The notes beneath the pieces are model-generated. The model was not told where the DNA came from, made no database searches, and saw nothing but the letters and a program-made list of their open reading frames with translations. Below are positions 2,537 to 32,583 of a stretch of 32,583 nt of DNA, in pieces. The stretch comes from Catajapyx aquilonaris (lineage: Eukaryota), in contig JYFJ02004369.1 of assembly GCA_000934665.2 (NCBI GenBank), forward strand, positions 1 to 32,583, given 5' to 3'. The position numbers and the translations under genes are program-made. Position 1 is the first letter of the stretch; each line of letters starts with the position of its first letter.

Positions 2537-3338
2537 ATATGCTGATATTGTCGTAATATAAGTTACTTTTAGGAAAATGGGCATTAATAGGGTATATTAC
2601 ATGAGAACTAACAACTTTAAGTATTAGTGTTAATTTTTCCTAATTTGTCATGTGTGATTCTAACGGTATTTTTGACAAATAATAACACCATTTGAATCGC
2701 AATCTTAGAACGGTTTTCTCGTAGCTTATCATACCCTGCGCACTCTCTGCTTAGCCCTTCTGGGGTCTGCTTCATTTTCTCTTTGTGACAGCCAGTGTTT
2801 AAAATAAGAGGGAATGTATTTAAAAGATAATAGGTATTTATCGATGGTTGAAATGATATAAGAAATGTATCAAGTTCTCGTAATATTGTGGAGGCATATT
2901 GTCAATGTCCGCTTTCCAGACGCAAAGAACTGATGGTATAGCACAGAAGTTAGAAAATACAGCGCAATCGATGGAAGTGACATTTCTAACTCTTACATTT
3001 TCGACATGTTTTGGGCCAAGAAACACGCTGCCGACCGGACACCGGCCTATAATAATGTTGCCATTCGAGTAACAGTAATAAATAACGTGATTCCGCAGAC
3101 TTGCTATGTGGTCTGTTTGTAGGCGGTGATGAACTACAACTTCAGACTCAATAATAATTACCTAGCACTCTGATTCTATAGGCTACGTACATGACTTATT
3201 ATACCGTGTTACTGACATATGCCCCATACATTACGCTGCAATTTTGTGTAAAATATTGCATGAACTACTCCCCTCTGCACACATTGCAACACCTGTAATG
3301 CTGAGGGTGACAGGAATGAGGGGTAATATTAATGTAGC

Positions 3339-5342
3339 ATGCCAGTCTCGGGTGAGGGTCATCTTCAAATAATGGCCAATTTTTGTACCGAAACGATGGC
3401 TGCAGGTTGGGGAAGTATGTCTACTTTGGTGCTACGTGTCCTTATCTTGTGCAGTTTTCTTCGGGTTGGACATTTCGTGCCCCCAATTCTGAAAACAGAC
3501 ACTGAAGATGACATTTTAATGGCACAATTTGTTGAGCAGCTGGGGCAAGTAGAAGACAAATGCGCCTTGGTGTTCGCCACAAACAAAAACCGCATGTCTA
3601 ACTCCTTGCAAAATGTGTTGCAGTCGCAGTCTAGGAGTACAAGACAAGCTGTGGTCGTTACGAAGTTGGAAAAATTGCCTCCTGCTGAGAAAGAGCTCTA
3701 TTCCTTCACGACGATGCCACCGCCAATCAAGTCGAGATTGTGGACTGGAGGATTTTGCACGTTGCATCTCATCTTGCCAACCGACGCGGATCAAATGGAT
3801 CACATGGTGGTGGATCTGGCCACGAAAGTGTTAATGGACAACTTACATCACAAGTTTCTCTTTTGGCTGCCTTCGACTAGTGACGAGGGTGTCCTTATGG
3901 GAGAGCCCTTCAAAGGGATTAGGTTCAAATTGGCGGCATCATCAAATGGATCAGATGTCAATCTGTCCACCATATGCTTTTTCTGCAACCAAGGTGAGCC
4001 TGCTGTAATGACTATAGGACTTCTCCAACAGCAGGACGACTTAAAGAAACTCAAACTGTATCCTGATACTAGCGGAAACTTGCATGGACTCGAGGTAAAA
4101 GCTTGCAACCTCTATGAGACTAACGCAGAAGAAACCCGTAAGATGATGGAAGTCCAGGGGTTATATGACATCGAACTGAGCCATTTGTGGCCAGTGTTTT
4201 TGGAGGATATGATAAAAGGCAAAGTGACTGTATACCTCCACGACTTTACTTCCATCGGCTTTGAATCCATGTACCCCAATGGAACTTGGAGCGGAAGTGT
4301 TGCTGAAATCCTCAAAGGAAGAGCGAATATGTCAATGACATCTTTCATAACCGAACAGTCGCTGCCATACGGAAAGAACATGTATCCAACTTACAAGTTG
4401 TTTCTAACCTTCGTCACAAGGAAGTCTGCATCGTGCATGAAGTGGGAAGTCTTCTTCTACCCTTTTACCATGTCATCGTGGATGTTTATTATCGCCTGCA
4501 CCTTAATGTCGGCCTGTTCCATCCATTTTGCTATGAGCAAAGGGTATGGTTTGAAGTCTTCATTTAAAGGCGCCATCAAAATTGCGATGCGTATCATCCT
4601 GGAGCAATCAAGTTACGACCCTGATGAAATGGCTCTGCGCATTTTGATAATCTCATTTCACATTTTTGCTCTGGTTGTGCTCTGTGGATACAGATCAAAA
4701 TTGGTTGCCTTTCTGACGTTCCCTTCGCAAGAGTCTCTTCCCAGCACGTTCTCCGAGCTAGTGAAAAGTGGTTGGGAAATTGGGATGCCACCTACGGACA
4801 ACATCCTATTTGGCATAATGTCTCGAGAAACCAACCAACCAGCAATGAAATTCATAGAAAGCAATGCACAAGTCATGGACAGTGAAAATGCTTGCTTTGA
4901 AGCATGTCTCGAGAGGAACTTCGCCTGCGTTGCTTATGACTACACAATTGGAAAGACGATGAGTTTCTTCACGACTACCTCTGGAGAAACCAGAATTCGC
5001 TGGCCCCAAGCGATAGCGCTTGATCTCTTTGTGTCTTGTATGTTTGGGCATTCGGAAGTTTACTTCCCACACATGCAGAGATCTACTTTCGCTCTGTTCG
5101 AGGGGAATATGTGGAGGATGCTTCAAGATAATTATGTTTGGAAACTGACACTTAAGAAAATATTGGAAGATATGCGGTCCGGCGGTTCTGCCCACTTGGA
5201 CAATGCATTTGTTCTGTCTCTTTATAAAATTACTGTTGTGATCTATTTTTGGCTATTAGGCCTATTGCTAGCGTTGATGTCATTTATATTTGAATTTATA
5301 CGCAGGCCTAAGCAGCGGCATATGCATGTAATAATATGGTAA
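3339..5342 (+). CDS. Divergent ionotropic receptor (IR), single exon, tandem copy 2
   Basis: 667-aa ORF colinear with copy 1 at an offset of 2806 bp, with the same IR motifs. The true start is probably the shared ATG at 3396 or 3417. Confidence 0.88.
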   Translation: MPVSGEGHLQIMANFCTETMAAGWGSMSTLVLRVLILCSFLRVGHFVPPILKTDTEDDILMAQFVEQLGQVEDKCALVFATNKNRMSNSLQNVLQSQSRSTRQAVVVTKLEKLPPAEKELYSFTTMPPPIKSRLWTGGFCTLHLILPTDADQMDHMVVDLATKVLMDNLHHKFLFWLPSTSDEGVLMGEPFKGIRFKLAASSNGSDVNLSTICFFCNQGEPAVMTIGLLQQQDDLKKLKLYPDTSGNLHGLEVKACNLYETNAEETRKMMEVQGLYDIELSHLWPVFLEDMIKGKVTVYLHDFTSIGFESMYPNGTWSGSVAEILKGRANMSMTSFITEQSLPYGKNMYPTYKLFLTFVTRKSASCMKWEVFFYPFTMSSWMFIIACTLMSACSIHFAMSKGYGLKSSFKGAIKIAMRIILEQSSYDPDEMALRILIISFHIFALVVLCGYRSKLVAFLTFPSQESLPSTFSELVKSGWEIGMPPTDNILFGIMSRETNQPAMKFIESNAQVMDSENACFEACLERNFACVAYDYTIGKTMSFFTTTSGETRIRWPQAIALDLFVSCMFGHSEVYFPHMQRSTFALFEGNMWRMLQDNYVWKLTLKKILEDMRSGGSAHLDNAFVLSLYKITVVIYFWLLGLLLALMSFIFEFIRRPKQRHMHVIIW

Positions 5343-6693: not shown

Positions 6694-7950
6694 TTAATTC
6701 ATGTTTACGTAACATTTTTTTGACAGTGGCTTAGCCTTGATTTCCAGCAATTCAACCAAAACTTCAGGCGGCAAGTGTTTCGCATCCTTCCAGGCTGGAC
6801 TCGCAGTCAACTGCTCCATTTTTCCAGACACAAACTGCAAGCACACCTTCTTCAGCTGCTCCGCATTGTGGTTGGATGCCAGTTCCAAAACAGTCAGCAC
6901 GTTGTCCAGACAGAGGACACCGGACAGATGTCTCTCGCACATCTCTTTCAGACGCGCCAGATCATACATATTCGCCACCACCAACAACTCCTGCGCCATG
7001 TCCGACATCTTTTCCGGCTCCTTGTCGGTGTAAATGTACCGAACCACCTCTCTCATCACGTCGGGACGCACATCGTGAACCCTGATGTCCCTCGAATGCT
7101 TTTCTAACATGTCGTGTCGAAACATGGCCTCAAACACAGGGCTTCTAGCACTCAAGATGAATTTGTGAGCAGGTATGGAGTCGCTCCCGGTCACTAACAT
7201 CACGTCCGAGTCCATCTCGGACACTAGCAGCTTCTCCAGATCGGACACCAACTCGGAGGATCTCACGCAAACCTGAAGAATACATAACCATTTGTTCATC
7301 TATGTCTAAATACTTTTTGTCCAAACCATACTCAATCGAAAATGTAGATATGTTTTTGGATGGAAATGGTGCGATACCAACCTGAGATGTGGGCGACGTC
7401 ACAGTGACGTCCAGCACTTGAGCTTCGAATAATATCTGGACAGTGTTGTTAGGACACAGGTCGTCCATTCTGCTTCGAAGCAGCTCATGAGATATGAACT
7501 TGACCCAGCCCCAGGCAGGCACTGCAGTTGAGAAGTATCGCTTGGTGTCATATCTGCTGTAGTCATTGTTGGATTTGCTCTTCAGCGTGACTTTAAACGA
7601 GTGGACGGTTTGGACATGGTCAGGTGGACAGGGCGTGTATTCTATATACACTGAGACGTGTCCTGGTTCGCACTTGAGGTCGGCCACGGGGTCTAGTCGG
7701 ATCTTCCACTTCCCTGGGACACCTTGGTTGTGGAAGGAGGATGACCGAAGCACTGAATTTTCATCTTCAAGAAAAGAGGTGAACTCCTCAATGGTCCATA
7801 GAAAGGAGAATGATTTGTTTTTCCTCCTTGTTGTGCATGATCTGATATCTTGAAATAAAGTTTGGATTTTTTTAGAGCGCATCTGATTCTGGCTTAACTC
7901 TAGTAGTTTTACTTACTGTGATTTGCACCTGAGGAATTGCGAGAAGCCAT
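6694..7950 (-). CDS. MATH-BTB (SPOP/roadkill-like) Cullin-3 substrate adaptor, paralog A
   Basis: MATH exon (FSFLWTIEEF...WKIRLDP...HVSVYI...AWGWVKFI) ends at 7382 with CAG|GTTGGT. A phase-0 intron (7381-7273) leads to acceptor TTCTTCAG| and the BTB/BACK exon 7272-6694 (AHKFILSARSPVFEAMF, RYIYTD, LKEMCE..L). The 5' end is either the ATG at 7882 or a small exon 7950-7929 spliced in phase 1 to 7848, giving about 355-359 aa. Confidence 0.85.
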
Positions 7951-8702: not shown

Positions 8703-9722
8703 TCATTTTTTTGGAACATTTGAATTCACTTCAACCACGATGTCAACCAGCACTTCAGTTGGAAGGATCTTGACCTCTGTCCATGCTGCATGAGTACTCA
8801 ACTGCTCCACCCTTGTAGACGCAAACCGTACGCAAGCACTCCTCAGCTGGTGTGCATTGTTCTTATGCGAAAAGCTCAAAAGCGACACGACATTGTCTAA
8901 ATTCAGCGTACTTGCCAGGTGACGCTCGCACATTTCACGCAACCGAGGCAAATCATATGTGTTTGCAACTGCCAATAAATCCTGAGCAAACTCTGCCATA
9001 TGAGTTGGCTCTTCATCTGTGTAGATGTAATGGATCATCTCTGATATGACAGCCGGGTGCACATTCTGAATTTTAATCACTCGAGTACGCTTCTCCAAAG
9101 TGTCGTGTCGAAACATCGAGGCGAACACTGAACTTCGAGCACTCAAGATGTTTCTATGGGCCATGACAGCCCCACCATCGCTCGTTGCTAGAGACACATC
9201 AGCATCAACTTTGGAGTTCAACATGGTTTTAAAATCAGATGTCAGATGAGATGGACTGACTTCAATATGTTCGGTGTCGACTTTGGCGGTGACAACGTCG
9301 CCGCCAATCTTTCCTTCGAATATTATCTCCAAAATGTTGTTTGGGTACAGGTCTTCTCGTCGGCTCTTCAGGTGGTCAATACCTATGTATTTGGACCATC
9401 CCCAAGAGGACACTTTGGACAGGTTTTCGCCAAACATTGAGTAATCCTTCTTGAACTTGCTCTTCAGAGTGATTTTGTACGAAGTGAGGTACTGCGGCTT
9501 TGTGTACACTGCAAACACGGACATGTGGTCAGGTTGCCCTTTCGAATCCCCCTGTGGGTACAGCTGCAGCTTCCACTCTCCTGAATCACATCCTTCGACG
9601 AGAAATGGCGTCGACTGCAGCTCCTTGTGTCTTGTGTCTCCAAGGAAGCTGCTGAAGTTCTCAATGGACCATCGCATAGAGAATGGTCGCTCTTCCATCC
9701 TCGTGAAGCAAGAGTGTGTGCT
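8703..9722 (-). CDS. MATH-BTB (SPOP/roadkill-like) Cullin-3 substrate adaptor, paralog B
   Basis: The 331-aa ORF 9698-8703 has MATH (FSMRWSIENF, WKLQLYPQG, SWGWSKYI) and BTB (AHRNILSARSSVFASMF, HYIYTD, LREMCERHL) in one exon. An in-frame acceptor CTCTAG| at 9722 adds STHSCFTR. A small upstream exon (possibly 9868-9830) is uncertain. Confidence 0.85.
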   Translation of the reverse strand, partial: STHSCFTRMEERPFSMRWSIENFSSFLGDTRHKELQSTPFLVEGCDSGEWKLQLYPQGDSKGQPDHMSVFAVYTKPQYLTSYKITLKSKFKKDYSMFGENLSKVSSWGWSKYIGIDHLKSRREDLYPNNILEIIFEGKIGGDVVTAKVDTEHIEVSPSHLTSDFKTMLNSKVDADVSLATSDGGAVMAHRNILSARSSVFASMFRHDTLEKRTRVIKIQNVHPAVISEMIHYIYTDEEPTHMAEFAQDLLAVANTYDLPRLREMCERHLASTLNLDNVVSLLSFSHKNNAHQLRSACVRFASTRVEQLSTHAAWTEVKILPTEVLVDIVVEVNSNVPKK

Positions 9723-12830: not shown

Positions 12831-13432
12831 CTGGACAAGTTGAAGCAACTAAACTCTTGTCAAGTCATGAAGGCTATAGAGGGGCCTGTATGGTTGTCTG
12901 AAGCTCTTGCCTCTACCATCAATGGATGCTCTGAACATCTGGTGAATCAATTCAGTCACATAAGCAAAATGAACAACCCCTATATTTTCAGGGGAAGGAG
13001 ATCATCAGTAAAGTTACCCTGATTCACAGTGGCAGGCCAGTTCCCCTGGGATATACAGCCTGCTGGCTTACTGGAGATATCTGCTGAGACACATTGCATG
13101 ACACTACTAGGTTATGGAATTCCTCCCCCTTTCTATTATCTGTTAAAGAATTGCTCTTTATCATTAGTCATAATAACTATAAAAGTAACTGCTACATGTA
13201 TAAAAATGACAGGGCAATGATATAAACCGTGCTGATGTGGAAGACCAGTCATATTATGCTATTGATCTGCATGAGGGCGACTCGAACAATACAAAACCAA
13301 TGTGTGTATGGCCAATGAAGTCATGTCAAAATAATATTGCAATGGTCAAATTGACTACCATCTGACATGAGTCTGTTGCAACTGGGATTCACCTTACAAA
13401 TTAAAATATGTCCGCCCACCGTTCCCTTCCTC

Positions 13433-16400
13433 TCACTTTCCACATGCAATCCTTCTGTCTGCCACATGTGTTGCCAGGTGCCTCTTCAGGTGGTCCTTCC
13501 TTGCAAACGTCTTGCTGCATTGGTCACAACTGAAGACCCCAGCTTCCATATGTAGCCTACTGACATGCTCCCTCAACGCTGATGCACTAGACAAATACTC
13601 ATCACAAAATTCACACACATGGGACTTGGACCTCCCTGAGCTGGCAGCCCCTCCTCCCCTACTACCACTTCCTCCGTGGGTCAGCCTGTGCTTCTGAAGG
13701 TGACTCTTCGTCCGGAATGCCTTCCCACAGTGCTCACATGGGAATGGCTTTTCCGCTGTGTGAGTCATTAGGTGCCTTTTGCAGTGATCCTTCCGCCCAA
13801 AAGCCTTCCCACACAGCTCACATCGATACATGCGTCCCTCCACATGTGTCCTCATGTGGTCTTTCAGGCTTGCTGCATCTCTGAACCTCTTGTCACAGAA
13901 GCCACATTCATGGGGACGCTCCTCACTATGAGTCAACCGATGCTTCTTCACATGGCTCTTGGTGCGAAATGGCTTCAGGCACAGGTCACAGCGGAATGGG
14001 CGCTCAGATGTGTGAGTAGCCAGGTGTGTCTTCAGATGATCGTTTCGTTTGAAAGCCTTTCAAGAATAGGAATGAATTAGCTTCATGTACTCATGAAAGA
14101 AGGCCATGCAAATATACTGCAATTGTGCATGTGGTAAATCACCACACACACATCTTCTTTCCAGTATATATCTGGGAGCCTCGAGCAGGGGTGACATGAA
14201 TTGGGTGCAGGGAGGTTGGCAGATATGGTACTGACAACAGGTCAGATTCCTTTCTCAGGAAATTACTGTCCTAATGTCTATACAGTATAACACACCTTGA
14301 GACAGAAATGGCAGCAAAACCGACGGTCCTCAGAGTGTTTGGTGAGATGGGTGCGAAGGTCTGCCTCTGTGAGGAAGGTTTCAGAGCAGTAGCCGCAGCA
14401 GAAAAGCATTCCGCCAAGATGGAGAACTTGGCTAGCACCACCTACAGCAGCCGACTCAGAAGGGGGAACGTTAGAAGCAGGAGTCAAGGCCTTCGTGTGA
14501 CCTGAAGGCGTTCCTGTGTTGTTGGTGCTGCTCTCAGGCTGGGGGCAGTGCTGTTGCTTCTGCGGATCCTGCCAATCAATTAGACCAGATTTAAAAGAAA
14601 AGTATTTTAATGTCCCGAACACAACAAGAAAAAGCCTATTCCAATCCCTTCTGCTCTGCTTGTAATAAAAGGCTGTACCTCTGCAAGTGAGTCTAAATGG
14701 AGCGCCACGTAGTTCTGTGGTATGATCTCCATGTCTAGCTTCTCTTGTGAAGAATCCTGGTATACATCCATATTAAAATGCCCCTGATGTTGGGGAGCCA
14801 TTTGTGGCCACATGTCAAACTTTCTGGCTGCATCCAAGTTGTGAGTTGCCACGTGAGCTTCCCACATGTTCCTCTTAGTAAAGTATTTTCCACAGGCACC
14901 ACACACGTGCTTTCTGCCCCCACCTCTCCTGGCACACTCCCCACCAGCATGCCTGCTGTGATGCTTCTGTAGCTGCCCCTTTCGCCGAAAGCGTCTCCCA
15001 CACAGGGCACAGTCAAAGGGCTTGTGCACTGTGTGGGTCATGAGGTGAATTTGAAGGTGGGGCTTCTGGCGGAAACTTTGCTGGCATAGGTGACATTGAT
15101 GGGGCTTCGCTCCTGTGTGGGTCATTTGGTGGATCTTCAAGTGGTCATTGCGCTTGAAGCTTTTCCCACAATAGCTACATGGAAAGCGGCGGTCTTCTGG
15201 AGCCAAGAGAGCAGATGGGCGGAGGACCAAGAGCGAACGCTTATCCTCAGTCTAGAATGTGGTTATGTCAATTGTACATTATTCTCTCTAAAGCAAACCT
15301 GATCAAAAGCCATTGGCTATAATTTCAGAAACTTACCTCTCCAATACTTTCTAACTGCATTGGATACTGTACCCCATCCCGCCCTTCTTGACCACCAACC
15401 TCGTGTGACTTAATTGCATGCTCTTGGAGCGCACTCTTCCTCATGAAGCACTTCCCACACACTCCACAGGCGTATTTCCCTCCAATATCTCCACCTGTGT
15501 TCCCATGCTTAGCACAGTGTCGCCTGTAGTGATCCCTCCTATTGAAGGTCCGAGAGCAAAGATCACATCGATACACCTTCCACTCCATGTGAACTCGCAT
15601 GTGATCTCGAAGTGTTGGGGCATCACGGAAGTGTTTGTAACAGAAGCGGCACATATGCTTGTGTGTTGACATGTGCTTCTGGACCTGGAGAAAAAGCCAA
15701 ATGAATGTTTAAGAGTGGAACCATCTAATTGAAGGCATACTTCATCATACAAATTAGGAATATCTGAGTGCACCTCCATGGGCTGCCATTGAGGGGCCAA
15801 CAAAATTACGGCAAACAATCGAGCATGCAATTAGGTCTGGAGAAGTTGACCCACTTTATAGCCACCATCACAGCTAAAGACAGTTGGAGAGCTGGTTTTG
15901 TTTTCCACCACCAAAAGTGGAAGGATGCAAGTTTAGAAGGAAACCTTACTGTCCTCAGGTTTGACGGTGACTATACCTGACTTTTCCGTCTGAACCTTCT
16001 TCCACATGCCTGGCACTCAAAGGGCTTCTCCACAGTGTGGGTCATGAGATGGATCTGCAGGTGAGGCTTCTGTCGGAAGGCCCGATGACAGTGTGGGCAC
16101 TGATGAGGCTTCGCCCCAGTATGAGTCATCTGATGAATCTTCAAATGGTCATTACGCTTGAAGCTCTTTGTGCACTGGTCACAAGAAAAGCGACGATTCT
16201 CCTGGGAAGCCTTCTGGTCTTCAGACTTCTCTAAGTTTGGATTGGTAGAGCTGCATTCCACTGGATCCCGATGTGGCTCCTACAAAGAGAGAGAATGACT
16301 AGCAGTTGGCACTGTGAATTCAGTTCACATCTTGCGCAGTAACACTAACCCTATTCTGATCTACAGTGGGTCCAGAAGTCACTCCGCCTTGAACTCCAGC

Positions 16401-16712
16401 AGGGCCAGTGCTCATCCTCTGATCCACAGTGTGCATGGGTACCAAACCATGAGCCAGTGTGAAGGCTCTTTTGGCTTCTTCTACAGCAGCTGTCATTACA
16501 CCAACTCCACCATTGCTATGTTGCTGTTGTTGCTGCTGCTGCTGTTGTTGTTGCCCAGATGGCAATTGCAAGAGGTCGTCAAGACCCCAGGCAGTCAAGT
16601 GGTTACCCACCTCCCTGGTCTCCCTTGCCCAATATTTAGATGTTGTAGACACCAGCATGTCCTCTGTATCTGCCTGGATTACCACCTTCACCTTCTCCTC
16701 ACGAGACATCAT
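13433..16712 (-). CDS. Poly-C2H2 zinc-finger protein (18 fingers, N-terminal polyQ), about 827 aa
   Basis: Coding exons 16712-16350, 16279-15977, 15684-15337, 15251-14679, 14568-14296 and 14056-13433, all GT-AG and all phase 0. Splicing completes two split fingers (FRRKSQ|VQKHMSTH and CHFCLK|AFKRNDHLKTH). TGAKP, TAEKP and TSERP linkers are present, and there is an in-frame stop just upstream of the ATG at 16712. Confidence 0.85.
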
Positions 16713-17850: not shown

Positions 17851-18139
17851 TTGTACCCTGTGCTAGGGCCATGGGCCCTTTAGGGGGGTGGAATACCACC
17901 ATATTTTTTATTATCTGGAACTCTTGCTTTCATATTTACTTTGCGTATATGGGGATGGGATAGGGACGGAAGGAGGCGGCTGTGGCCTATAATTACGGAC
18001 ACGACCCCGGAATTTTCCTGGTGAGACCATGGGGAACCACAGAAAACCACGGTCAGGGTCGGCGGCCACCGGGATTCGAACCCAGGACCTCCTGATTAGC
18101 AGTCGGATACCATATCCCCTCCACTACCACTGCTTCGGT
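17779..18139 (-). mobile_element. tRNA-derived SINE, family 1, copy 1
   Basis: Minus-strand tRNA-like head with B-box GGTTCGAATCC, a (TTA)n tail at about 17779-17850, and a 16-bp TSD TCAGAGTAGGTTAGTT (17763-17778 and 18140-18155). A near-identical copy lies at 27067-27363. Confidence 0.9.
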
Positions 18140-19578: not shown

Positions 19579-22298
19579 ATGGGCGAGGAGAATCCGGAGA
19601 GATGTCCGCCAGACCCGAACGGACGAAGCCCGTTTCTGCGGTTCATGTTCGGAATGTGGAAGGTGTTGGATGGACCGGTCACTTGGTTCAGGGGTAATGC
19701 ACACTCGCTCACTCAGGGACGAGGGGTACGGCCTGATCAGTTTTCTTGCAGCGTCTGTCGTGCTCGAAACTGTTGAAGGAGGTGCCGTTGGAGCCGGTAC
19801 TGTCACTAGAAACCTCACAGTTTGGCTGTACGTAACTGTGTGTGATGAAGACATTGCATTGTGATGGGTCACCTCACACATTTTGTCATGTCAGGTCAAC
19901 GCTTAGTGTGGAGAGTTTATTATGTACAGTCACAAGCATAAAGATGGTCTACCACCCACATCTTTATGTTCGTGACTGTACATAACGGAACAGTAATAAC
20001 TAGGCAGATATGATACAGTAGAACCCCGATTAACCATCACCCAGGGGACCGGGGCATGGTCAGAAAGCAAAAAAAGTCGGATAAGCTGAGGAGCAAAAGA
20101 AACTTGAAGGATACACAATAAAACATAAACAAATGAAATAAATGTACAATAGTGCTTTCTAACGTAAGAAATAATAAAGTATTTATCTTTTACATACACG
20201 ACTGTATGTGCTGTATTTACAATTTAACTAAGGCAATACAAAACGAATGGGTAGTGTACCAGTACAGTACAGCATTTGCTGAGAATAAAAGATTTCTTGC
20301 TGGAGCAGGATGGTCGTATAAACTGAGGAGTCACATAATAATTCGAGATTAGATAAACAGGGTTCTGCTGTATTGCAATTTTTATTTCATACAGACTGTA
20401 CAGTGGACCTATTGTAATTAGTGGAGGCAGCATGTGTGTGTATGTTGTAATAGCTATAAGGCTAATGTTTCATCAAAATGTGTATCAGTTTTCATTGCAT
20501 TTAATTCATTCTCTGCAGGAAGTGTGGTTGAGCCCAATCGTCCCACTTACCCTTGGTACCACCAGAAGTTCCGCCGGGTGCCAACCATAGACGAGTGCTA
20601 CGAGGATGACCCCATCTGCGTCTTTGAGGCCAACGCGCAGTTTAAGAGGGACAGGTTGCTGTTTTTTTAAAATTCTTCAGCTGGTGTCACATATTAGTGG
20701 CTAACGATATTTTGATGGATATTTTGATGCATGTGTCTTTATTTTTAAAATGGTTGCACATGGGGGACAGTTGTTTTCCAGGATAAAGTGATAAATGACT
20801 ACAAAATAAAAATTTTTGGGCCACTGTGAAAGTTGTTACTGGCTAGCAGCACCAAAATTTTTCATTGTGTTTAACTGAGGCAACAAGAATGCACCAATTA
20901 GGTTAATTAACCATGCATTTTCTTAGAGGGACAGTGGAATACACTGCACCATGGATTTTCTGATAAACTGTACTTGCAGCTACTACGAGGGGCATTAGGA
21001 AAGTCTGCACTTTATTTTTTTGCCACAAATACATGCATGTCAGCAGATTGACTCACATTATCGAGAGAACCCTCCTGGAGCCGAATGCACTGGCGTCATA
21101 GGTATGTCAACCTCTCCTGTCCCTCCTGGTACCACTTTTTGGTTGTACTATGCCCCCACTCCCGGACAACTGCTTCTTGTTCAACAATGTCCTTGAAATG
21201 GCGTCGGTGAAGGTTTTTTTTTCATGGACTTGAACAGGTGAAAGTTACTGGGTGCCATATCATACGACAGGAGTACGATGGGTGTAGAAAGACCCAAACC
21301 CAGATACACGAAAAAATTCCTTCTCCAATGCCATTTTGAGGACATATGTTGACAGTTGTTTACAGTGAGCAGTTGTCAAGGTGCGTCGCACCACCAAAAA
21401 GTGGTTCCTGGAGAGCCTAGAGAGGTTGCCACACCCGTGATGCCAGCGCATTTGGCTCCAGGAGGGTTCTAGCAATAATGTGTGCCTATCTGCAGACCTG
21501 CATGGGCCCTGTATTTGTGGCAAAACAACAATAACAATAACAATAACAAAAAAAAGTGTACAGACTTTCCTACTACGCCCCTCATATAACAAAAGCTGAT
21601 ATAAAACATGTGCCTGTGATTTAGGCTGGCCAATCAGGTGGTCCTGAAGTCATTTGTTCATTGGGAAGGTATAAAAGTATTACATATAACTGATTTTATC
21701 CACTAGGCAAGTGGACACAGAGATCCTAAACATCCTGCGCATGAGAATGGAAGATTGCATGGTGTATGAGGCCCCTGACCATGTGGCCAAGTGCAAGCAC
21801 CTTCTGGACATCTACGAGAAGGGAGCTGAGAACTGGTTTACCAAATGTGAGTTTTTCCATATTTTAAAATACTTTCTGCACTTATTATCATTATTTAATT
21901 ATTTTGCAATCATTTAGTTTGTGCAAGCACAACAGGTCGTCTCAAATGCACTTGATGTAGGCTGAAGTGAGAGCTTTTAATTTTGATACAAAGAAAGACA
22001 TCTTGTATGTAGAACTGGCCTGGTTCTATGAATGCAAGTCAAGGGAAAGTCTCCCAAGTATGCATAAACATTCGTATTGTCCATTTAAAAAAGAGTGTTT
22101 GATCAATATCAGCATGCAGTTATTGTAATTAGTTGATACAAGAACACTTCCTAATTGACAGATGGTGATTTGGGAGTGTATGGAGATGTCAAGACAGCAT
22201 ACATGAAGCAAAAGCACCGCATGATTTGGGAGAGGAGGCATGGTCCTGTTGGTAGTGGGATGAAAGGTGCAGGATGTGCACCAACAGAAGCTGCATGA
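19579..22298 (+). CDS. NDUFB10: NADH dehydrogenase (ubiquinone) 1 beta subcomplex subunit 10 (PDSW), 175 aa
   Basis: Exons 19579-19693, 20519-20654, 21707-21846 and 22162-22298 (GT-AG, phases 1, 2, 1) give LDGPVTWFR...YPWYHQKFRRVPTIDECY..D..C..EA..QFKRDR.VD.EIL.ILR.R..DC...W..KYGDLG......AYMKQKHRM, the characteristic NDUFB10 sequence. Confidence 0.95.
20016..20370. mobile_element. pogo/Tigger-like MITE in NDUFB10 intron 1
   Basis: TA|CAGTAGAACCCCGATTAACC ... AGATAAACAGGGTTCTGCTG|TA: imperfect TIRs with TA TSD. Confidence 0.65.
20986..21584. mobile_element. Mariner-derived foldback MITE in NDUFB10 intron 2
   Basis: TA|CGAGGGGCATTAGGAAAGTCTG ... CAGACTTTCCTACTACGCCCCTCA|TA, with inverted arms of about 230-250 bp. 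The minus strand near 21285-21150 translates, with one frameshift, as HPSYS/DMAPSNFHLFKSMKKNL, matching the mariner HPPYSPDLAPSDFHLF motif. Confidence 0.85.
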
Positions 22299-22616: not shown

Positions 22617-22721
22617 TGTTCTGCTTCTTTGCCAGTGAAACGGAGTATCCAATTTGGAAGTGTATCCTTTAATTTCTTGTGGGACAAATGTTTGGCTGCA
22701 TGTCTAAGTCTCTGATTCCCC

Positions 22722-25700
22722 TTATTCTTTGGGCTCGGCTGCGTCAGCTTCCGGGGGAACCACAGTGACACTTGCCCTTGACTGGCTTCTCTTCGAGGTA
22801 GCCATTCCGGTGTAGGATGGAGAGGCAGACCCTGCACCCAAGGTTAGGGAGGAGGAAGCAATTTCTGTTGCAGCAGTACTATCCTCCTCAACCTCAACTT
22901 CACTGATGTCATGCAGGCCCATGTCCAAGGAGTATGTGCGCATCTTCACATTGGCCAGTATCGAGTCCGAAACTTCTTGTGGTAGCAGTTCATAATGCTA
23001 AAATATTGAGTAGTTGTGAGTATAGTGTGAAAAATAATGTGTGTTTGGAACAAGCACCTTATGCCCTTCTCTTAAAGATGACAATTCATTTAATCTCGAA
23101 CCCATGAGGAAGTTACTATGTGCCCTCAGTGGCTCCTATAGGCTGCTATAATTGCATTCCTGTGTGATCAACTTACCTCCATGACAGTCTCCAAGAACTC
23201 CTTTTCTGCTTCTGCAACCAACTCTGTCTCCAGCTCCTCCTGAGGTTCTAGAGCATCATAAAAATCCAGGTCCTGCAATCAAGTACCAATCAGCCACATT
23301 CAAACAAGATGTTAATATAGTGAAAGTTATCTAGATAATGTATTGGTGGCAATCATGAAATTCTCACTGACTGTCACTTTTAGATTGGAAAAAAAAAGGT
23401 ACTGATAGTGACGTAGGAGGGTGTTAGCTATAATTCACTTTCATTCCCTTTGTTATGTCACATTTTGAGTCCTTCCCTGACAGCAGAGGTACCTTTCCTT
23501 GGAACCAAAGCTAGTTCAGGCTAGTACTTTTCATGTCATAAATGTGCCCACATAATGCACAATTACTGAATGAAAAATTGGATTGGGAATTTTAGCAAGT
23601 TTTCCGTCAAGAGGCACTTGTTTCTTTTGGTTGTTCAAACCAAGACTGTTGTACCTGGAAGTATTCATGGTCCTTCTCTCCACCATCTTCTGGCCCAGCC
23701 ATTTGTTGGCCACCTCGAGCCCCAACATCCTCATCCGGCTCATCCTCGCCCATCACTCCTTCTACATCGTCCTCATCATCCAGATTCTGCAAACCCAGGA
23801 GCTTGCTCCTCTTCTTTTTCTTCCTGGCAGCTTCAATCTCCTTCTTTCCTGGCCCTAATTCCATGTCCGGCTTTGGTTGTTCTTCATCTTCGTCCTCTAT
23901 CAAGTCTGAGTCTTCGGAACTTTCACTGGAAGTTTCTGGTACGGTGTACGCTTCTTCTGCTGCAGGCTCTGCTAGAAGTCCATCTCCCTCTTGACCTGGT
24001 ACTGATGAAGTCGACCCTGCCATGTTGACCTGGCTTGTTCCCATACCCATGTAGGGGTCAGCTTGCTCTAAGGCTCGGAAAATGTCTGATTCCGCAGATA
24101 GGGTATCAACGTCAACACCAGCCAGTTCTTCATCTAGGTATTCCAGGCCTGAAGAACAAAAGGCAATCAATCAGTCATTCATCATCAACACATTTAGGTG
24201 CATATTGTATTGTAATGCCTGTTCACTGTAAGTAGCAATAATATTAGTTGTAGTTTTCATGACGTGGACCTATTACCATGGGATGTAGTGAAAACACTTT
24301 TAATTTTCTCTCGTTAGTAAGTGGTACGGTACCGTACTGGTTTTTAGTGACTGATCAGACATTTTGCCCGATCCTTTTCCTTATGTGCCAATAATAAAAA
24401 GAGCTTAAATTAAGGTGGGCTCACATGACATACGATGGTGATGTTCATTCTTCAGTCATCATTTTCTGCATTGTTGACATTATTTTATTTCCAACATCAA
24501 CAATGTAGGGAACACTAGGGAATGAAACCATTTGGAACAAAATGAACATCACCTTTTGTAATCTGTGCATGGGTGTGAAGAGAAACTCACGCCCAATCAC
24601 CAGGTAGACTGATAGTACTTGCGAAACTAATATAGGGATGTGCAATTAGTTTTGGCCGCCGTGCCGTAGCGCAGTTAACCCCTTGAGCCCCAACTACACC
24701 CGCCAGTGCCTAGTTTTCCGCTTATGAGTACTCTGAAGATACGGACAAGATATTTTACACAAAATAACAGCTGTACTTACCCATTTAGGGAAAACACTAT
24801 GAATGTGTCTGGAACAATTTTCCTCATCTAGAAGTCTCTAAATTAATTTCCTAAAATATCGCTGTAAAACTCGAAATCGAGTACTTCCGGCCAACTACTT
24901 GGCTGATTTAATTATGAAATACATTAAAATACACGGAATAACAATATTGAGAGTAGCGCCAGACGAATTTGCTGAAATCGTCCTACTTTGCGAGAAATAA
25001 ATGATTTCTTATCTGTGACTTTCCTGTTACTTCGGAAATCTCCCAAATTAATTTATTTCTCGTGAAGTACGACGATTTCAGCAACTTCGTCTGACAAGGT
25101 TCTCAAGGTTAATAATCTGTATATTTTCATGTATTTCATAATTTAATCAGCCTAATAGTTGGCTGGCAGTTCTCGAATATCGAGTGTTTTTACAGCAATC
25201 TTTTTGGAAATTAATTTAGGAACTTCTAGTGGAGGAAAATTGTTCCAAACACATTCATAGCATTTTCAATGAACATGTATGTATAGCTGTAATTATTTTG
25301 TAAAATATATTGTCCTTATCTTCAGAGTGCATGTAAGGGCAAATCTAGGCGAAGGCCTAACAGTTGGCCAATAGTCATTGAATTTCAAGTTATTACTTTT
25401 GAAAATTAATTTAGGGACTTCTAGACGAGTGAAAATGGTTTCAAATGCATTCATAGAGTAGGGCATGAACATGTAAGTGTATCTGTTATTATTTGTGAAA
25501 TATCTTGTCCTTATCTTCAGAGTAAGTGCAAGCAAAAATCTTTCCAATGGAATTTACAGTGATCATTTTGGAAATTAATTTAGGGAATTCTAGACAAGGA
25601 AAATAGTTTCCAAGTTATACCTTATGTTTTCCCCGAACGTGTAAGTATAGCTGTTATTATTTGTAAAATTATGATATAGTTATCTTCAGAGTACGTACAA

Positions 25701-28700
25701 GCCAAAAACTAGGCGCTCACAGTATAGCTATACTCTGCAGTGATCCTCTTGGAAATTAATTTAGGGACTTCTAGACGATGAAACTGGTTCCAAACACATA
25801 CGTAGCGTAGAGCATGAACGTGTAAGTATAGCTGTTATTATTGGTGAAATATCTTATTTGTTATCTTCAGAGTACATGTAAATTTAACAGAAACGAAAAT
25901 CTAGGCAATGCAATGGCTGTATGGCTGGGGCCCAAGGTGTTAATACATACGGCGCCTGGAAAGTTTTGTGACATCACATCCGTTCCGCCAGCTATAAAAA
26001 AATCAAAAGCCAGCTCGAGGGCCTCCAAACAATCCAGCCTTGGGTCGGTAACATATCGCCCATGTGCAATAGGTGATCAAAAATCCCGTCAAAGTCAGAA
26101 TGTGGGTATGACACCCATGCACTTGTCATTTTCACCTAATATTTTACCATCTGGCCCTCTATACTTTAAAGGCACCATACACATTAACTATGCAATGGAG
26201 CCAAAAACTAATTGCACACTAATATAGGTCTATATTAGTTTTGCGAGTACTATCAGTCTACCTGGCGATTTGGCACGAGTTTCACTTCACCCTGTATAAG
26301 AAAAGCAGCTGATTCAATTAAAATTGTTTCTGAAGCAGACAACAAGCAGTCACTTCAGCCTCACCGAGTATCGCAGCATCAAACTTCTCGAGGGCTCGTG
26401 AATCCTGCATAGCATCCACATAGTCAATGGCCCTTAGCAAGGAGGAGGTGTCCGCCCCCTCAAAAAGGTTGGGTATGCCAAAGAGATCTGGGTCATCTTC
26501 TGGTCCAAGTAGGTCTTCCTCCCTTTCCAGGTCCATCATGAGCACAGCGTTGTTTATCTTGTCGTGACCCCCATCCAACTTGGCCTCTCCTGATGCCAGC
26601 ATTTCCAGTATGCAGTCCAAGCTCATACTCTCATCTTCCTCTGGGAATTCCACTTCTAGCGTTTCACTTAACTTTCTGCTTGCCTCCTGCAGGAGCGTCT
26701 CTGCAGACTTGGCAGGTGTTGCACCTGAAGACGCTTCCCTCGACATCTCCTGCGTTAGGGAGGAAAAAGCAGGGTTAATTAGAGGGACTTTGCTCTTCCC
26801 GCAGGAAGATCAAATTTGGCTGTGTTGCGTGCATTGTACTGGATGTGTCTGGGGTCAGGTTTTTCAGACTATGACAATGTATCAGAGGGTGCCATGTGTG
26901 CCAAATGCTTTACTGGATATGCGCTTATTACAGTCTAAGCCTGCTACTTGATTGATATAACTGATTTGATTGTCATGGAGCTTGATACAGTAAAGTCAAT
27001 CTTGCGATCTATGGTAGTCTCACTGTCAGATGTTATATTTCAGAGCAGTTCATAGTGGCACTTAATAATAATTTGTACCCCGTGCTAGAGCCATGGGCCC
27101 TCTTAGGGGGGTGGGATACCACCATATTTTTAAAATCTGGAACTCTTGCTTTCGTCTTTACTTCTCGTATATGGGGATGGGATAGGGACGAAAGGAAGCG
27201 GCTGTGGCCTATAATTACAGACACGACCCCGGAATTTTCCTGGTGAGACCATGGGAAACCACAGAAAACCACGGTCAGGGTCGGCGGCCACTGGGATTCG
27301 AACCCAGGACCTCCCGATTAGCAGTCGGATACCATATCCCCTCCGCTACCACTGCTTCGGCCCTAGTGGCACTTAATTTAACAGTAATTTTCTTGTGCGA
27401 CTTTTTTATGAGAGTATGTACTGATTGACTAATGAAACTGTAATATTTACAAGAGTCAAATTTTGAAAGTCACTGGAAATTTTTTCCATGGCCAAAAGTG
27501 CATGTTGCTTATGTATATTGCCAACATCTAATTCACCCAAAGGATCTTGTTTCTGGGCAACAACACATTCTTTGGAAATATGCCCAACACAGTGAAAATA
27601 TTATTGTTAGCCTTCATGCTGCAATTTTGTGGCTGTGGATTTGATTCATAGTAAAGGTACTTTATTTGTGCCTTTCGATAAAAATCAATTTCAAGAACCT
27701 TATCATTAACGAATGAGTTAATTATCTCATTTCCATCATGAATCCCTTCAGAGAATGTACAGTATGTATTGGGATATTTGGAAACTTGGGCAGTGCTCTT
27801 CTCTGCATCAGATGCCTCTGCGAAAGTCAGTTAAATGCTTTTTTACAAACATGATTAGAAGATGTTGAATTAACTGTACTCTGCAGTTTCGAAATGCATT
27901 TGTAGTGTTGAGAGTAACTTGCACGGCCACCAATATTTATTTCAAACTGTATTAATTGGGTGTTTAGGCCAATTCTGGAACATCTCCAATATTATGCACA
28001 GGGATTCACAATTATTCGTAACAAGATATTTCCATTCAATTTGTTATTAATACAGGCCCTTGATCCCATTGAAGATGATGTGGCATCAGGGGCCTACTGC
28101 AGGCCAAAATGAAGAAGTAGGACATTCCTTTCCTCCCCCCCTCCTCCTCCTCCTCCTCTTTACCTTAATGATGTCGAGCTTTTTCTTGTAGATACCTTCC
28201 CTCTTCTTGAACTTCTTCATAGAGGGGGCCTCATTTGGCCCTACGGCTGTCTCCATAAGCTCCTGGGAGAGTTCATGGGCTATGGCTTCATACATTTCTG
28301 CCTGGGTTTCATCATCTGGAGGCTCTTCTTCGTCTGAAACGATGATCTCTTCGGGATTCAGTCCCGCTCCAGGTAGGCTATTTCGGCCTGGAGAGCATGA
28401 AATTTGAGGGAATGGTTCTTATTACTGTCAACAGAAAGGCTTATGGACATTATCATGCTACAAAGTGCACCTCTGTAGTGTCTTGAAGGGGTTTCAGCAA
28501 GGGTCTTTCCTCTTTGACCTTTCTTAGTAATATGGGGTAAAGCAAGTGAAAACTCACGCATGATTGAGCCCTGTTATTAGATGTGCTCAACTTGCATCAT
28601 GCTGAGTTAGAGGGATATTTTATGAAAATAGTGGAAGTAGGCCTTCCTTGACTTATTATTTGTAATGCTTACTAAGTTATATTATGTACCTTCCCCAGGG

Positions 28701-31436
28701 CCTTGCTGTTGTGATAATTCAGACTGAAGCGATTCTGTTTCTGTTGATCCTGAGGTACCCGACGAGTGCTCCGCTGACGGCTCCTTTGGGGGCGATTCTG
28801 TGTCTTCAAACTGCCTGAGAAATGTCATAAAGTCAGGTACTGACATTTCTGCCATGGATGGGACGCCCCTTGGGAGGATCTCTGCAATTTGCCCCAAGCC
28901 TGAGTCCTGCCGCTCCCTCTCTTTCAGCTTCAGTTCTTTGTTTCGCCCTTCCAACATGCGCTCCCTTCGCGTTTCTCTTTCAAATGCAGCACTCACAGCA
29001 TTCTTGTCATTCTTAGGGGTGAGTTGGGCCTCCCTGCTGAGCCCCACAACATAGATGCTGCCATTGACTGTGCCTGCTGCCAGGAAGCGGCCTCCCTCCT
29101 GGACACGGAAGGACTGCAGACGGGCGTCACACAGCTGGTACGTTGACAAGGGGTAGGATTGGCTGAAGAGCATATCCCACACGTCGATGGCCCCATCCTA
29201 ATGCGGGTTGAATAACAGGGTTTGAGGCAAAGTCAGCTGCTTTGTCAGTGAGTGTGTATATGTGAGTATAAATGGGGAGGCAATGGATTATTATCTTGCA
29301 CACAAGATGTGATTGTAATTATTTAGCAGTTTTCAAATTAAAAGTTTTAACCTCCCACTACCCATACACCTTTGTACCTGTCTGGCACCAAAGAATTGCG
29401 ATGGCCTAGTCCAGCTCCACCCTGCTCCCACAAGGGGCACGCAATGGTCTGGCCTGAAGGTGAGGATTGCCCCCTCCCTGGCTTCTTCTGAAAAGACCCT
29501 GGCAGTGCAATCCCCAACGGTGAGGAAGTTTCGTGGGTAGACGGGATGCCTGGTTATGGTGTATACAGGGCCGGTGTGGGCACTGTACACTGCTCCAAGC
29601 TTATCCGAAGGGGACTTCCCTTTGCGGGAGCAGACAGCCACTACTCCCAGCTCTGTCCCTGCGATAAATTTGGCTGGAATTGTTGACTCATACTCAATGA
29701 CAGAACAGCCCTGAGCATGGTTTACATCTGAGGAGTAATGAAAAAGTATTTTAAAATGTGTAAGACAATTTCTATCAATAAAATGTGTAAATCTGAAAAA
29801 GAAAGGTACAGTATACTTGCAGTATTCTTTTATTGTGAATCCTGCATCATACATAATTATACAGTATTTGAATACTGAATGAAAACAGGACATTCATATA
29901 TAATACTGACTATTTCTTTCATTATTATAAATGTTAAAGATAATTTAATAACATTACTGGATTTAGATTCTCGCTTTACTAATATTTTGCATTTTTTAAA
30001 TATTAATTGAAAAGTCATGACCTAGCTCCTTGATCCCCTTTCGTACATCCATGATGAATGAATCAGTGATGTCACTCATCTTGCGTGTGTCCCACCACTT
30101 CACCATGCCATCACTGGAGGCAGTGAAGAACTCAGTGGAAGCCTTGGTGTTAATCCAGTGGATACCAGTGACTGGATCAGTGTGGGACATCTGAACGGTG
30201 CACAGCTCCACTGGATCTGAGGATTGCCTGGTGTCCCACCAGGTCACAAACCCAGAGTAGAGACCTCCAAAGAGGATGTTGGGGTTGCGTGCGTGGTACG
30301 CTAGAGACACGATGCCTGATGGGGAGCGAAGCTCCGTGTCCACCTGATGAGGGTTGTCTAAGAGTGAGGGCAGGCATAATAACATTGTAATCAATTTAAT
30401 AAGGTACTGGAAACGTGTAAATGCTTTAAGGAGCATGTGCTGCAGCAAAGGATGAGAAAATGACTAACTCATCTGCCATATGTATGAGTTGGTGCAGGCG
30501 TCTGGTATCCCTCCTGTGTACTTGAGCGAGCAAAAGGTGCAAGCTATGTGGGTCCCCTCAGGTGAGAACACCAGAGAGGAGACAGGCCTCTTGTATCCAC
30601 TTGGATCACGGAAGACGGTAACACTCCGGGCCAACTTCTCCTTGGTCGGTGAAAACACTGCCTCATCATCCGTGAAGAATGACTCATACACGTCAATTGC
30701 ACTGTTCTGGCGCAGGATGGGCTCGAGAGACTGTCATAAGATATAGAGTTGAATTATGTTATTGGGATATATATGATCGAATTAAAATTCTCCTTCCCTG
30801 ACTGTAGTTTTGTCGTTATACACTTGGTACCAACATGTATAGAATATACCAGATGATTCAGACAAACTTCTAGGGTGAACTCTTGTGAACCCATCTCTGT
30901 GCAGACAAAGTGACACTTCTGCTTCAGCACTCAAAAGTTCGCGCCCAAAGTGTGTCTAAATCATTAACACCCTGTGCAGATATGCAAAATCGCTTACACT
31001 GAAGAGTCCCATGACAGTCTGAGAGTAGCTCTCCTCCTTCTCCGTCTTCTTCCTGTACCTGGCCACCACCTCCGGGTCCTGCGGATGAATGTCTTTAGGC
31101 CATCCTCCTTCTGCATGGTTCATGCCAGAAACAGTCAGGGACACCCTCTCTGTATTGACCTGTGGAGATCATGCAGTGTACTCAATACCATACAGCACAT
31201 TCTCATTCATCTGGGATATAGTTAGTCAAATGCTTGAAATGACATACCGCGGCCTCATCCCTCTCTACGAGATGCCCGACCCCCACGTCGACTGGGTTCT
31301 TGTCCACATAGTCCTGGAGGAGATTCGGATCTTCCAGTATGTCGACTATAAGCTCGGTGGGTCCATCGCCGACTCGATCCAAGTGCCGTCCGAAATCAGA
31401 CCTGACCTTGCGGTACTTGTACACGTCCGAGTCCAT
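22722..31436 (-). CDS. DNAI2: Axonemal outer-arm dynein intermediate chain 2-like (WD40) with a long acidic C-terminal insertion, about 1093 aa
   Basis: Exons 31436-31248, 31159-30998, 30730-30469, 30357-30022, 29727-29378, 29197-28690, 28387-28164, 26749-26365, 24148-23655, 23272-23177 and 22997-22722; all GT-AG, phase-consistent, 3282 nt in total. DNAI2 motifs: YKYRKVRSDFGR, GMNHAEGGWPKD, SHTDPV...WIN.K..TEFFTASSDG.VKWWDTRK, IEYESTIPAKF, HTGPVY...P..FLTVGD, ERETRRERMLE and LVAEAEKEFLE. Exons 7-11 are less certain than exons 1-6. Confidence 0.85.
24568..26294. mobile_element. Tc1/mariner-type MITE (outer element) interrupted by a nested insertion, DNAI2 intron 8
   Basis: Inverted repeats GTGAAGAGAAACTC..CCAGGTAGACTGATAGTACTTGCGAAACTAATATA (about 24575-24633) and TATATTAGTTTTGCGAGTACTATCAGTCTACCTGG..GAGTTTCACTTCACCCTG|TA (26231-26296). 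The left terminus is degenerate. Confidence 0.75.
24679..25939. mobile_element. TTAA-flanked (piggyBac-like) non-autonomous element with subterminal repeat array
   Basis: TTAA|CCCCTTGAGCCCCA ... TGGGGCCCAAGGTG|TTAA. An internal unit of about 170-195 bp (GAAATTAATTTAGGGACTTCTAG...TTATCTTCAGAGT) occurs once inverted on the left and four times on the right. Confidence 0.75.
27067..27363 (-). mobile_element. tRNA-derived SINE, family 1, copy 2 (DNAI2 intron 7)
   Basis: Colinear with 17850-18139, with B-box GGTTCGAATCC, a short TTA tail and a 14-bp TSD TAGTGGCACTTAAT (27053-27066 and 27364-27377). Confidence 0.9.
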
Positions 31437-32053
31437 TTGCTCTGGCCGAGTGTCCCCTGCTTGGTAAAACCGACTTCAGGTAAAAAAAAAGAAGTCAAAG
31501 GAGCAGGTGAACGAGTCGATCTGCTGCCTGGCACCACGATCAATTCGGGGGGTGGTGCAACAAAGAGGGGCGACAGAGAAGTAAACAAACTGGGAAGACA
31601 GGGTGGCAACCATATAGAAGCAGCAACCGATTCAAACAGACCGCGCAATGCCATTGGGAAGATATAATTTAGCTTGATCAGGCTTGGTGTTCATTAACAG
31701 TAGAAGCAGAATTAAATGATTATAGCTTGTGTTCCATAATAGCAAGGTAAAATAACTTCTATGGGCAAGAACTTTATGTAGAGGAACATTTTGTTCTTCG
31801 GCGCAGACTTCTTGTGCTATTTATTACGTAAGTTAACATTATGGACCATGTAATTATTATGTTTTGGTCTACCGCTTCCACCTTATTTGAAATGCTTCTG
31901 TGAGACCCTCCTTTCACACCACCCGTTTTTCCCAATACCCCACAATTTTTTTAAAAAATGTGTCCAATCCTGCTTGAATCCGATTCCAGGTAGCAGCACT
32001 CTATAGAGCTGCGCGGTATTTGGTTCGATAGGCCTACACCCCGCCTTGTTATT

Positions 32054-32418
32054 ATGAACCGAAGGCCTCCCCCCGCACTGCCAGTTTCGGCGTCGGTGCC
32101 ATGCACTCGGGCCGGTCCAGAGACGCTCTGGCCAATGAAGACCCGTTTTTACGGCATTTTCTGGTCACTCATCGCCTCCTCCACTTTGACCCTCACCTTC
32201 CTCACGTACCAATTGTACAGCAAGTACGACACAATCTCCCGAGTGTACAAGCACCTCACCACACCTGTCGACTATGCTTTGGTGCATTCTCCACATATCA
32301 AGAAGATCCTCTTCTGGAACACCTTCTATGGAGACCCTTACTTCGGATTCGGGCATGGTCAAGAACCGTTTCTCAAGGCAGGGTGTCCAGAAACGCGCTG
32401 CTTTGCGTCGGACGACAG
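32054..32418 (+). CDS. First coding exon of an alpha-(1,3)-fucosyltransferase (GT10 family); the gene continues beyond the window
   Basis: A type II membrane anchor (FYGIFWSLIASSTLTLTFLTY) precedes KKILFWNTFYG..FGFG.G.EPF..AGCP.TRC..SDDR, typical of the arthropod FucT N-terminal catalytic region. Donor AG|GTGCGT at 32419. Start at 32054 or 32135. Confidence 0.75.
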
Positions 32419-32583
32419 GTGCGTTGATTTCAATGTATTGTGCATGGTATATCTAATTAACATGGATTAAGATGGGGAGAAGTTATGGACTGTTTACTCC
32501 AGCAAATCGTTTGAAAAGGAATGACAATCAGAACCACTATTGGTACTTCTCATTTAACTTATTGCTGGAGAAAACAAATAATT

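Follow-up and report, generated by a model that had tools for sequence, protein, structure and literature searches.

The window, 32,583 nt in length, is a whole contig of the Catajapyx aquilonaris assembly, which comprises 286 Mb in 20,583 contigs, is fragmented and may be incomplete. Its minus strand carries a predicted 11-exon gene (31436-22722) with 1,093 stop-free codons, ten GT-AG introns and a TAA stop codon at 22724-22722. Exon 6, which as a whole spans 29197-28690, is given in two parts (6a and 6b) in the following list of features.

31248..31436, minus strand: exon 1, start codon and N-terminal extension, residues 1-63
30998..31159, minus strand: exon 2, EGGWP motif, residues 64-117
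30469..30730, minus strand: exon 3, residues 118-205
30022..30357, minus strand: exon 4, WD40 propeller, residues 205-317; weak donor, boundary placed from frame and homology
29378..29727, minus strand: exon 5, WD40 propeller, residues 317-433
28913..29197, minus strand: exon 6a, last propeller blade and tail helix 1 (ERET coiled coil), residues 434-528, matching bovine and human DNAI2 residues 429-522
28690..28912, minus strand: exon 6b, start of the insertion, residues 529-602
28164..28387, minus strand: exon 7, acidic insertion with the first basic patch (residue 660)
27283..27355, minus strand: tRNA-Ser-like head of a repeated element in intron 7, probable SINE
26365..26749, minus strand: exon 8, acidic insertion, possible short helices without a confident fold
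24575..26290, no strand assigned: MITE-like element in intron 8, 61-nt terminal inverted repeats (89% complementary) and nested repeats, non-coding
23655..24148, minus strand: exon 9, most acidic part of the insertion, second basic patch (residue 914)
23177..23272, minus strand: exon 10, conserved DNAI2 tail helix 2 (residues ~983-1002); weak in-frame cryptic acceptor at 23247
22722..22997, minus strand: exon 11, Ser/Glu/Ala-rich C-terminal tail and stop codon
22611..22616, minus strand: AATAAA poly(A) signal about 105 nt past the stop codon; ATTAAA also present at 22673

The MITE-like element in intron 8 is interrupted by a second element with repeats of about 180 bp and a 131-nt hairpin. A search of the assembly with the left end of the intron 8 element returned 1,653 candidates, of which 40 were scored, and at least 60 matches were listed. 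A second tRNA-Ser-like head, also a probable SINE, is located at 18061-18133, and a similar sequence occurs in L003.

The window also carries other genes. Two tandem, intronless and nearly alike frames on the plus strand (566-2536 and 3333-5342) resemble ionotropic receptors, with Lig_chan matches below the cut-off. They are followed on the minus strand by tandem MATH-BTB (SPOP-like) genes at 6694-7912 and 8703-9722 and by a multi-exon C2H2 zinc-finger gene with nearly repeated finger blocks (~13400-16700). An exon of an NDUFB10-like gene lies at 20422-20670 on the plus strand. Near the contig end, an open frame (31994-32470, plus strand) stands head-to-head with the 11-exon gene; it has no Pfam match, but looks like the N-terminal part of an alpha-1,3-fucosyltransferase.

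Identity of the DNAI2 core

Residues 1-528 represent a divergent yet intact DNAI2 core, with exons 1-6a aligning in order along the named homologs. The N-terminal extension is present with its NPV and EGGWP motifs and was aligned without notable gaps. The WD40 propeller was recognized through Pfam WD40-type matches on single exons, all below the curated cut-offs, and the ERET coiled-coil helix is found in exon 6a, with the ERET...KLKERE motif at residues 506-528. Exon 6a matched residues 429-522 of bovine and human DNAI2 with E values of 1e-19 and 4e-19, respectively, and also aligns to Chlamydomonas IC2. The PDB sequences matched by this exon part were IC2-type chains or their protist counterparts in eight of eight cases.

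In order to assess the integrity of the core, we considered columns that were at least 90% conserved in a 72-row alignment as near-invariant. The window protein keeps 69 of these 82 columns, compared with a homolog median of 81 and with 63-71 in divergent arthropod copies. Its identity to any homolog sampled does not exceed 44-45%. A quick 40-row tree separates it from the insect clade (SH-aLRT 99); its branch is long, at 1.2 changes per column, and no sister is supported. Gene content and tree together suggest an arthropod source that lies outside the insects proper. In exon 1 (residues 47-54, ~31280-31300), the N-terminal NPV...G.Q motif has Gly in place of its Gln, a residue found in 97 of 104 matched homologs; this motif resembles a light-chain (LC8) binding motif.

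Protein searches of the assembly found no second DNAI2, but only this locus and other intermediate-chain-like loci. The latter were considered as second DNAI2 copies and rejected, since they are cytoplasmic IC, WDR63-like, WDR34-like, DNAI4-like, DNAI1-like and RBBP4-like. Four of these labels, the DNAI1-like label not among them, are putative and were assigned by reading the translations. Besides the DNAI1-like gene, the assembly carries two beta-type outer-arm heavy chains, one gamma-type heavy chain and an ODAD1-type gene. For the heavy chains, five of the nine DHC_N1 contigs were checked, and the other two of the five were cytoplasmic dynein and DNAH10. A search for RFX X-boxes upstream gave 19 matches versus 16 expected, which is no more than chance would produce, and none of them was at the DNAI2 promoter.

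The long branch, the low identity and the Gly in place of a conserved Gln might indicate that the gene is decaying in the course of outer-arm loss, and that the extra sequence described below is junk from splice-site drift. We regard decay as extremely unlikely, however, as the 1,093 codons are free of stops and frameshifts, most of the conserved columns are kept and the partner genes are present. Judged by its conserved sequence features, the protein is a DNAI2/IC2 member that presumably works like one, and the other intermediate-chain genes of the assembly are separate loci.

The second tail helix and its spacing

The original prediction assumed that an L..AE.EF segment follows the ERET coiled coil within a few tens of residues in DNAI2 proteins, and that this segment occurs only in exon 10 of the window gene. 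The segment is real, with the consensus L..AE.[ED]F and a median spacing of 53 residues. We derived a family profile from 150 of 301 hits; 122 of these had at least 55 residues past the ERET anchor, and 117 yielded an 18-residue segment. On exon 10, where the motif ELVAEAEKEFLETV is located at residue 987, the profile scored 17.7 bits, compared with a leave-one-out family median of 15.2 bits, although the match spans just 18 residues, in sequence of acidic helical character. Within residues 525-1093, the runner-up site reached 6.5 bits, and exon 10 is indeed the sole good match in residues 529-1093. Among 5,000 global shuffles, one reached 17.7 bits, and among 5,000 local shuffles five did. 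We also considered that a degenerate helix 2 might occupy the normal position (residues 546-563), but rejected this, as the best score there was -4.5.

Alignment of the exon 10 motif with the DNAI2 C-terminal helix had been suggested as a check. In addition to the profile, hhalign aligned exon 10 with the family alignment at an E value of 9e-4, albeit with a probability of just 22.6%, while the E values for exons 6b, 8 and 9 were 0.31-0.51. MAFFT also placed exon 10 on the family helix 2.

We measured the spacing between the helices from the Phe of the ERET helix to the Phe of helix 2. It is 491 residues in the window protein. In a first set (150 of 301 hits), the 92 of 150 proteins with a helix score of at least 10 bits had spacings of 46-107 residues. 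In a second set, the spacing was 49-66 residues in 115 of 116 proteins, among the matches listed (120 of 1,083 hits). Two dipteran copies scored below 10 bits and were left out of the count. The exception in the second set, Physeter P0169 (1,287 residues, apparent spacing 239), was rejected as a precedent, because it carries a tandem duplication of the last blades and the tail; it also has an unrelated extension and is a likely annotation artefact. As the homolog sets are samples of the hits, a similar insert may exist elsewhere.

The excess over the median spacing is about 438 residues. It lies entirely between the end of helix 1 and the acceptor of exon 10, because removal of residues 531-970 would give a spacing of 51. 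The predicted insertion of about 450 residues that splits the conserved tail is thus borne out at the DNA level, with 458 residues between KLKERE and ELVAEAE and a spacing about 440 residues above that of the family. The expectation that the protein is nearly doubled in length also agrees with the data (1,093 residues versus a median of 606 in 156 full-length homologs, among which only P0169 and Diachasma P0117 exceed 900 residues). The short inter-helix linker, which is typical of DNAI2 but does not define it, is absent. Disordered linkers often grow, but the length predicted for this one is outside everything sampled.

One gene or two

According to the original prediction, the frame stays open and phase-consistent past the ERET helix, and an acidic insertion runs through five more exons. 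All five proposed junctions (28690|28387, 28164|26749, 26365|24148, 23655|23272 and 23177|22997) are GT-AG, maintain one open frame and are in phase, for which the chance is about 1/243 by arithmetic. The acidic insertion was confirmed at the DNA level, but its extent had to be refined. It begins in exon 6b and reaches to the start of exon 10, while exon 11 encodes a 91-residue tail behind helix 2.

Splice sites were compared using a phase-blind weight-matrix score, in windows with the proposed site at their centre. Between donor 6 and acceptor 11, both included, ten of ten sites ranked first among all GT or AG dinucleotides within 80 nt, compared with seven of ten for the conserved core. When the same bases were shuffled, the given frame stayed open in 3.6% of cases for exon 6b, 2.1% for exon 7, 0.16% for exon 8 and 0 of 5,000 for exon 9. 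The GC content of the insert exons 6b-9 (49-53%) also differs from that of the ten introns (24-41%). Against the model, synonymous codon bias in the insert exons was weak, at -0.05 to +0.11 bits per codon, and showed no preference for the proposed frame, as another frame scored higher in exons 6b, 8 and 9. No hidden extra exons in introns 6-10 passed the thresholds.

Alternatively, the locus might contain two units, a DNAI2 of 604 residues that ends in intron 6 and lacks helix 2, and a separate gene for an acidic protein (exons 7-11) that matches helix 2 by chance. Read-through at donor 6 meets a stop after two codons, which would give a protein near the normal length of the family. Exon 7 contains in-frame ATG codons, and the two divergent dipteran copies mentioned above score below 10 bits for helix 2. 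However, no local site scores better than donor 6 or acceptor 7, and the two are in phase; intron 6 has 302 nt and contains neither AATAAA nor ATTAAA. The few shuffles that equalled the exon 10 score argue against a chance match, as does the retention of helix 2 in 116 of 116 homologs of the second set, among the matches listed. Since the ten splice sites of the insert rank first and its five joins keep phase, a single gene is much more probable than a pair, and the arrangement in two units appears very improbable. Taking splice ranks, frame and the helix-2 match of exon 10 together, the DNA sequence provides good support for the view that this is an internal insertion rather than a separate gene, and we consider one gene with an internal insertion highly probable.

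The insertion and its possible role

The 458 residues between KLKERE and ELVAEAE contain 25% Asp+Glu and have a net charge of -79. The two basic patches noticed earlier correspond to 15-mers with a charge of +7 at residues 659-673 and 914-928. Disorder prediction, which had been proposed as a check, classified 82% of the insert windows as unfolded, compared with 1% of the propeller windows; residues ~740-840 are a borderline, less disordered stretch. AlphaFold on exon 8 alone gave short helices with a pLDDT of 41.6, which is weak evidence as it was obtained with a single sequence.

An internal duplication as origin of the insert was rejected, since self-BLAST detected no repeat and the gene contains no tandem repeat. 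A transposon origin was also rejected, since exons 6b-7, 8 and 9 are single-copy in the assembly. The best explanation is that the insert was built from unique sequence over several exons and is neither a repeat nor a captured domain, as far as its sequence can tell. One may speculate that an old donor was lost after helix 1, followed by exon gain. Searches for homologs of the insert were blank, which counts as weak evidence. Neither the 794 candidates for exon 6 nor the 2,400 for exon 9 included one that scored, 427 metagenome stretches contained none, and Pfam had no family for exons 7-11. In the Atlas, exon 8 had no usable match and exon 9 a single lead at 0.77. No orthologous insert, in which purifying selection could show, came up in the searches run. 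Full-text searching, with most subscription papers outside its reach, found no account of an enlarged DNAI2 tail.

We modelled the normal homolog P0244 with AlphaFold, using the 72-row alignment. The model has a helix at residues 493-532 (pLDDT ~90), a 13-residue low-confidence linker (~59) and a second helix at residues 546-571 (~88), and its best structural matches are IC2 chains. Helix 2 also appears to be ordered in the Tetrahymena cryo-EM chain 7k58_E, because 555 of its 557 residues are modelled and the profile matches through the motif. The IC2 tail is reported to be needed for outer-arm assembly. In Chlamydomonas, IC2 with its coiled coil deleted did not rescue assembly, according to PMC4814214, where this is cited as unpublished data. 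The same paper describes a tag of 88 residues, placed between Thr549 and Thr550, with which swimming and ODA occupancy remained normal; the tag was localized to the outer surface of the arm, which the coiled coil reaches. Residue 549 is located directly behind the helix-2 motif. IC2 is further reported to contact both heavy-chain tails and the beta motor of the next arm (PMC7817835; PMC8500839; PMC10267688; PMC11496786). For Tetrahymena DIC3, a preprint describes a C-terminal part that gains order on the doublet, where it follows the beta heavy-chain tail (bioRxiv 10.1101/2020.11.30.404319). General background is found in PMC12700831, PMC8789290 and PMC7140630.

From the P0244 model and the reports on contacts, tag and deletion, we infer that both helices probably still dock and that the insert loops outward. 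By analogy with the family, the N-terminal extension and the WD40 propeller would make up the intermediate/light-chain block that sits on the heavy-chain tails. Helix 1 (ending at residue ~528) would follow the beta heavy-chain tail outward, and helix 2 would dock farther on, where the arm has its outer surface. As the insert is confined to one flexible linker between the helices, it should loop out without breaking assembly, as an acidic tether present four times per 96 nm of doublet. It would then most probably be a tolerated expansion in a fast-evolving copy and at most a charged spacer. In other arthropod copies, the linker and the tail behind it vary in length, and tolerated expansion therefore accounts for the data no less well than a special role in the axoneme. 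We favour, with moderate confidence, the view that the long form predominates and that the insert is largely a tolerated spacer. The lineage-specific sperm or sensory axoneme architecture suggested by the original prediction is possible, but speculative.

The charge pattern could also be read as an adaptation, with the basic patches binding tubulin tails of a neighbouring or accessory microtubule, or the short helices (residues ~690-830) binding a partner, which would result in a modified outer arm. Two strongly basic 15-mers within so acidic a region would fit this reading, as would the less disordered stretch, the position of the IC2 tail on the outer face of the arm (PMC4814214) and the fact that four exons are still open although introns 7 and 8 have gained mobile elements. 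On the other hand, exon 8 gave no confident fold and the searches run returned no Pfam family, homolog or usable Atlas match, which is weak evidence, and inspection by eye revealed no matching giant insert in the DNAI1 or ODAD1 reading frames. Moreover, basic patches are common in disordered regions. An adaptive linker therefore seems rather improbable to us.

Another possibility, which we consider unlikely but not negligible, is that alternative splicing of the single gene provides shorter working forms, and that the full insert is made in one cell type only, e.g. in sperm. Flies achieve such a division with three DNAI2 paralogs, in Drosophila one copy in chordotonal neurons and two in testis, according to PMC6367277 and PMC4660584. 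Here, a single DNAI2 was found beside two beta-type outer-arm heavy chains. Skipping of exons 7 and 8 (890 residues) or 8 and 9 (800 residues) would preserve the frame, and the cryptic acceptor in exon 10, with a score of 2.7 compared with 2.9 for the regular acceptor, could be joined in frame to donor 6 and would yield a protein of ~717 residues. Against this, no single insert exon is frame-neutral, and joint skipping of exons 7-9 shifts the frame. Exon 6 has no usable in-frame donor past helix 1 (best score -1.0), and therefore no isoform restores the normal spacing. A second copy could also be missing from so fragmented an assembly.

The two ideas may be combined. A single DNAI2 might serve both sperm and sensory outer arms, with an acidic arm of 200-440 residues and two putative tubulin-binding patches spliced in or out by cell type, although we think this improbable. 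If true, the spliced long form would tether every outer arm to accessory microtubules or membrane, an axonemal link not described before. Splicing of the insert by tissue would in itself offer sperm and sensory dyneins a new route to specialisation that needs no gene duplication. Should the insert be no more than tolerated, it would represent linker growth that is extreme in extent but of an ordinary kind for a protein that evolves fast. The helix spacing of ~50 residues is kept from algae to humans and is nine times as long here. A natural copy with such a spacing would establish helix 2 as an independent docking motif, held on a free tether, and would demonstrate that there is room for a large charged polymer on the outer face of the arm.

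The order of EGGWP extension, WD40 propeller, ERET helix and second helix is the same as in human (8j07_m2), bovine (9fqr_I6), Chlamydomonas (7kzm_E) and Tetrahymena (7k58_E) DNAI2/IC2/ODA6. The window protein differs from these in its length, its helix spacing (491 versus 46-107) and a core that is at most 45% identical. The Chlamydomonas tag is only a partial parallel, as it adds 88 residues behind helix 2, whereas the insert adds ~440 in front of it. The best match of exon 6, and among 292 fetched proteins also of exon 10, is barnacle DNAI2 (Pollicipes P0001, Amphibalanus P0277), which has a spacing of 64-66 and an extension of 173-222 residues behind helix 2.

A long branch and an enlarged charged tail are also found in divergent insect copies, namely Drosophila CG10859 and CG1571 (as described in PMC6367277 and PMC4660584), Diachasma P0117 and Condylostylus P0125. 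The partial P0117 sequence has 944 residues, a spacing of 95 and 341 residues past helix 2, so that, unlike here, most of its extra length lies behind helix 2. P0125 (658 residues) has a 43% acidic linker and a weak helix-2 match at a spacing of 115. Both may be sperm copies. These species or their kin retain a slow-evolving second copy, whereas one copy was found here. Dynein-2 offers a further case in its intermediate chain WDR60/DYNC2I1, whose extra sequence of ~450 residues is likewise charged and disordered (PMC10886578). This protein is not orthologous, however, and its extension is N-terminal and conserved, so that it serves as an analogy only. Compared with all these proteins, the ~440 extra acidic and predicted disordered residues between the two conserved tail helices are very probably far more than any relative examined has at this position.
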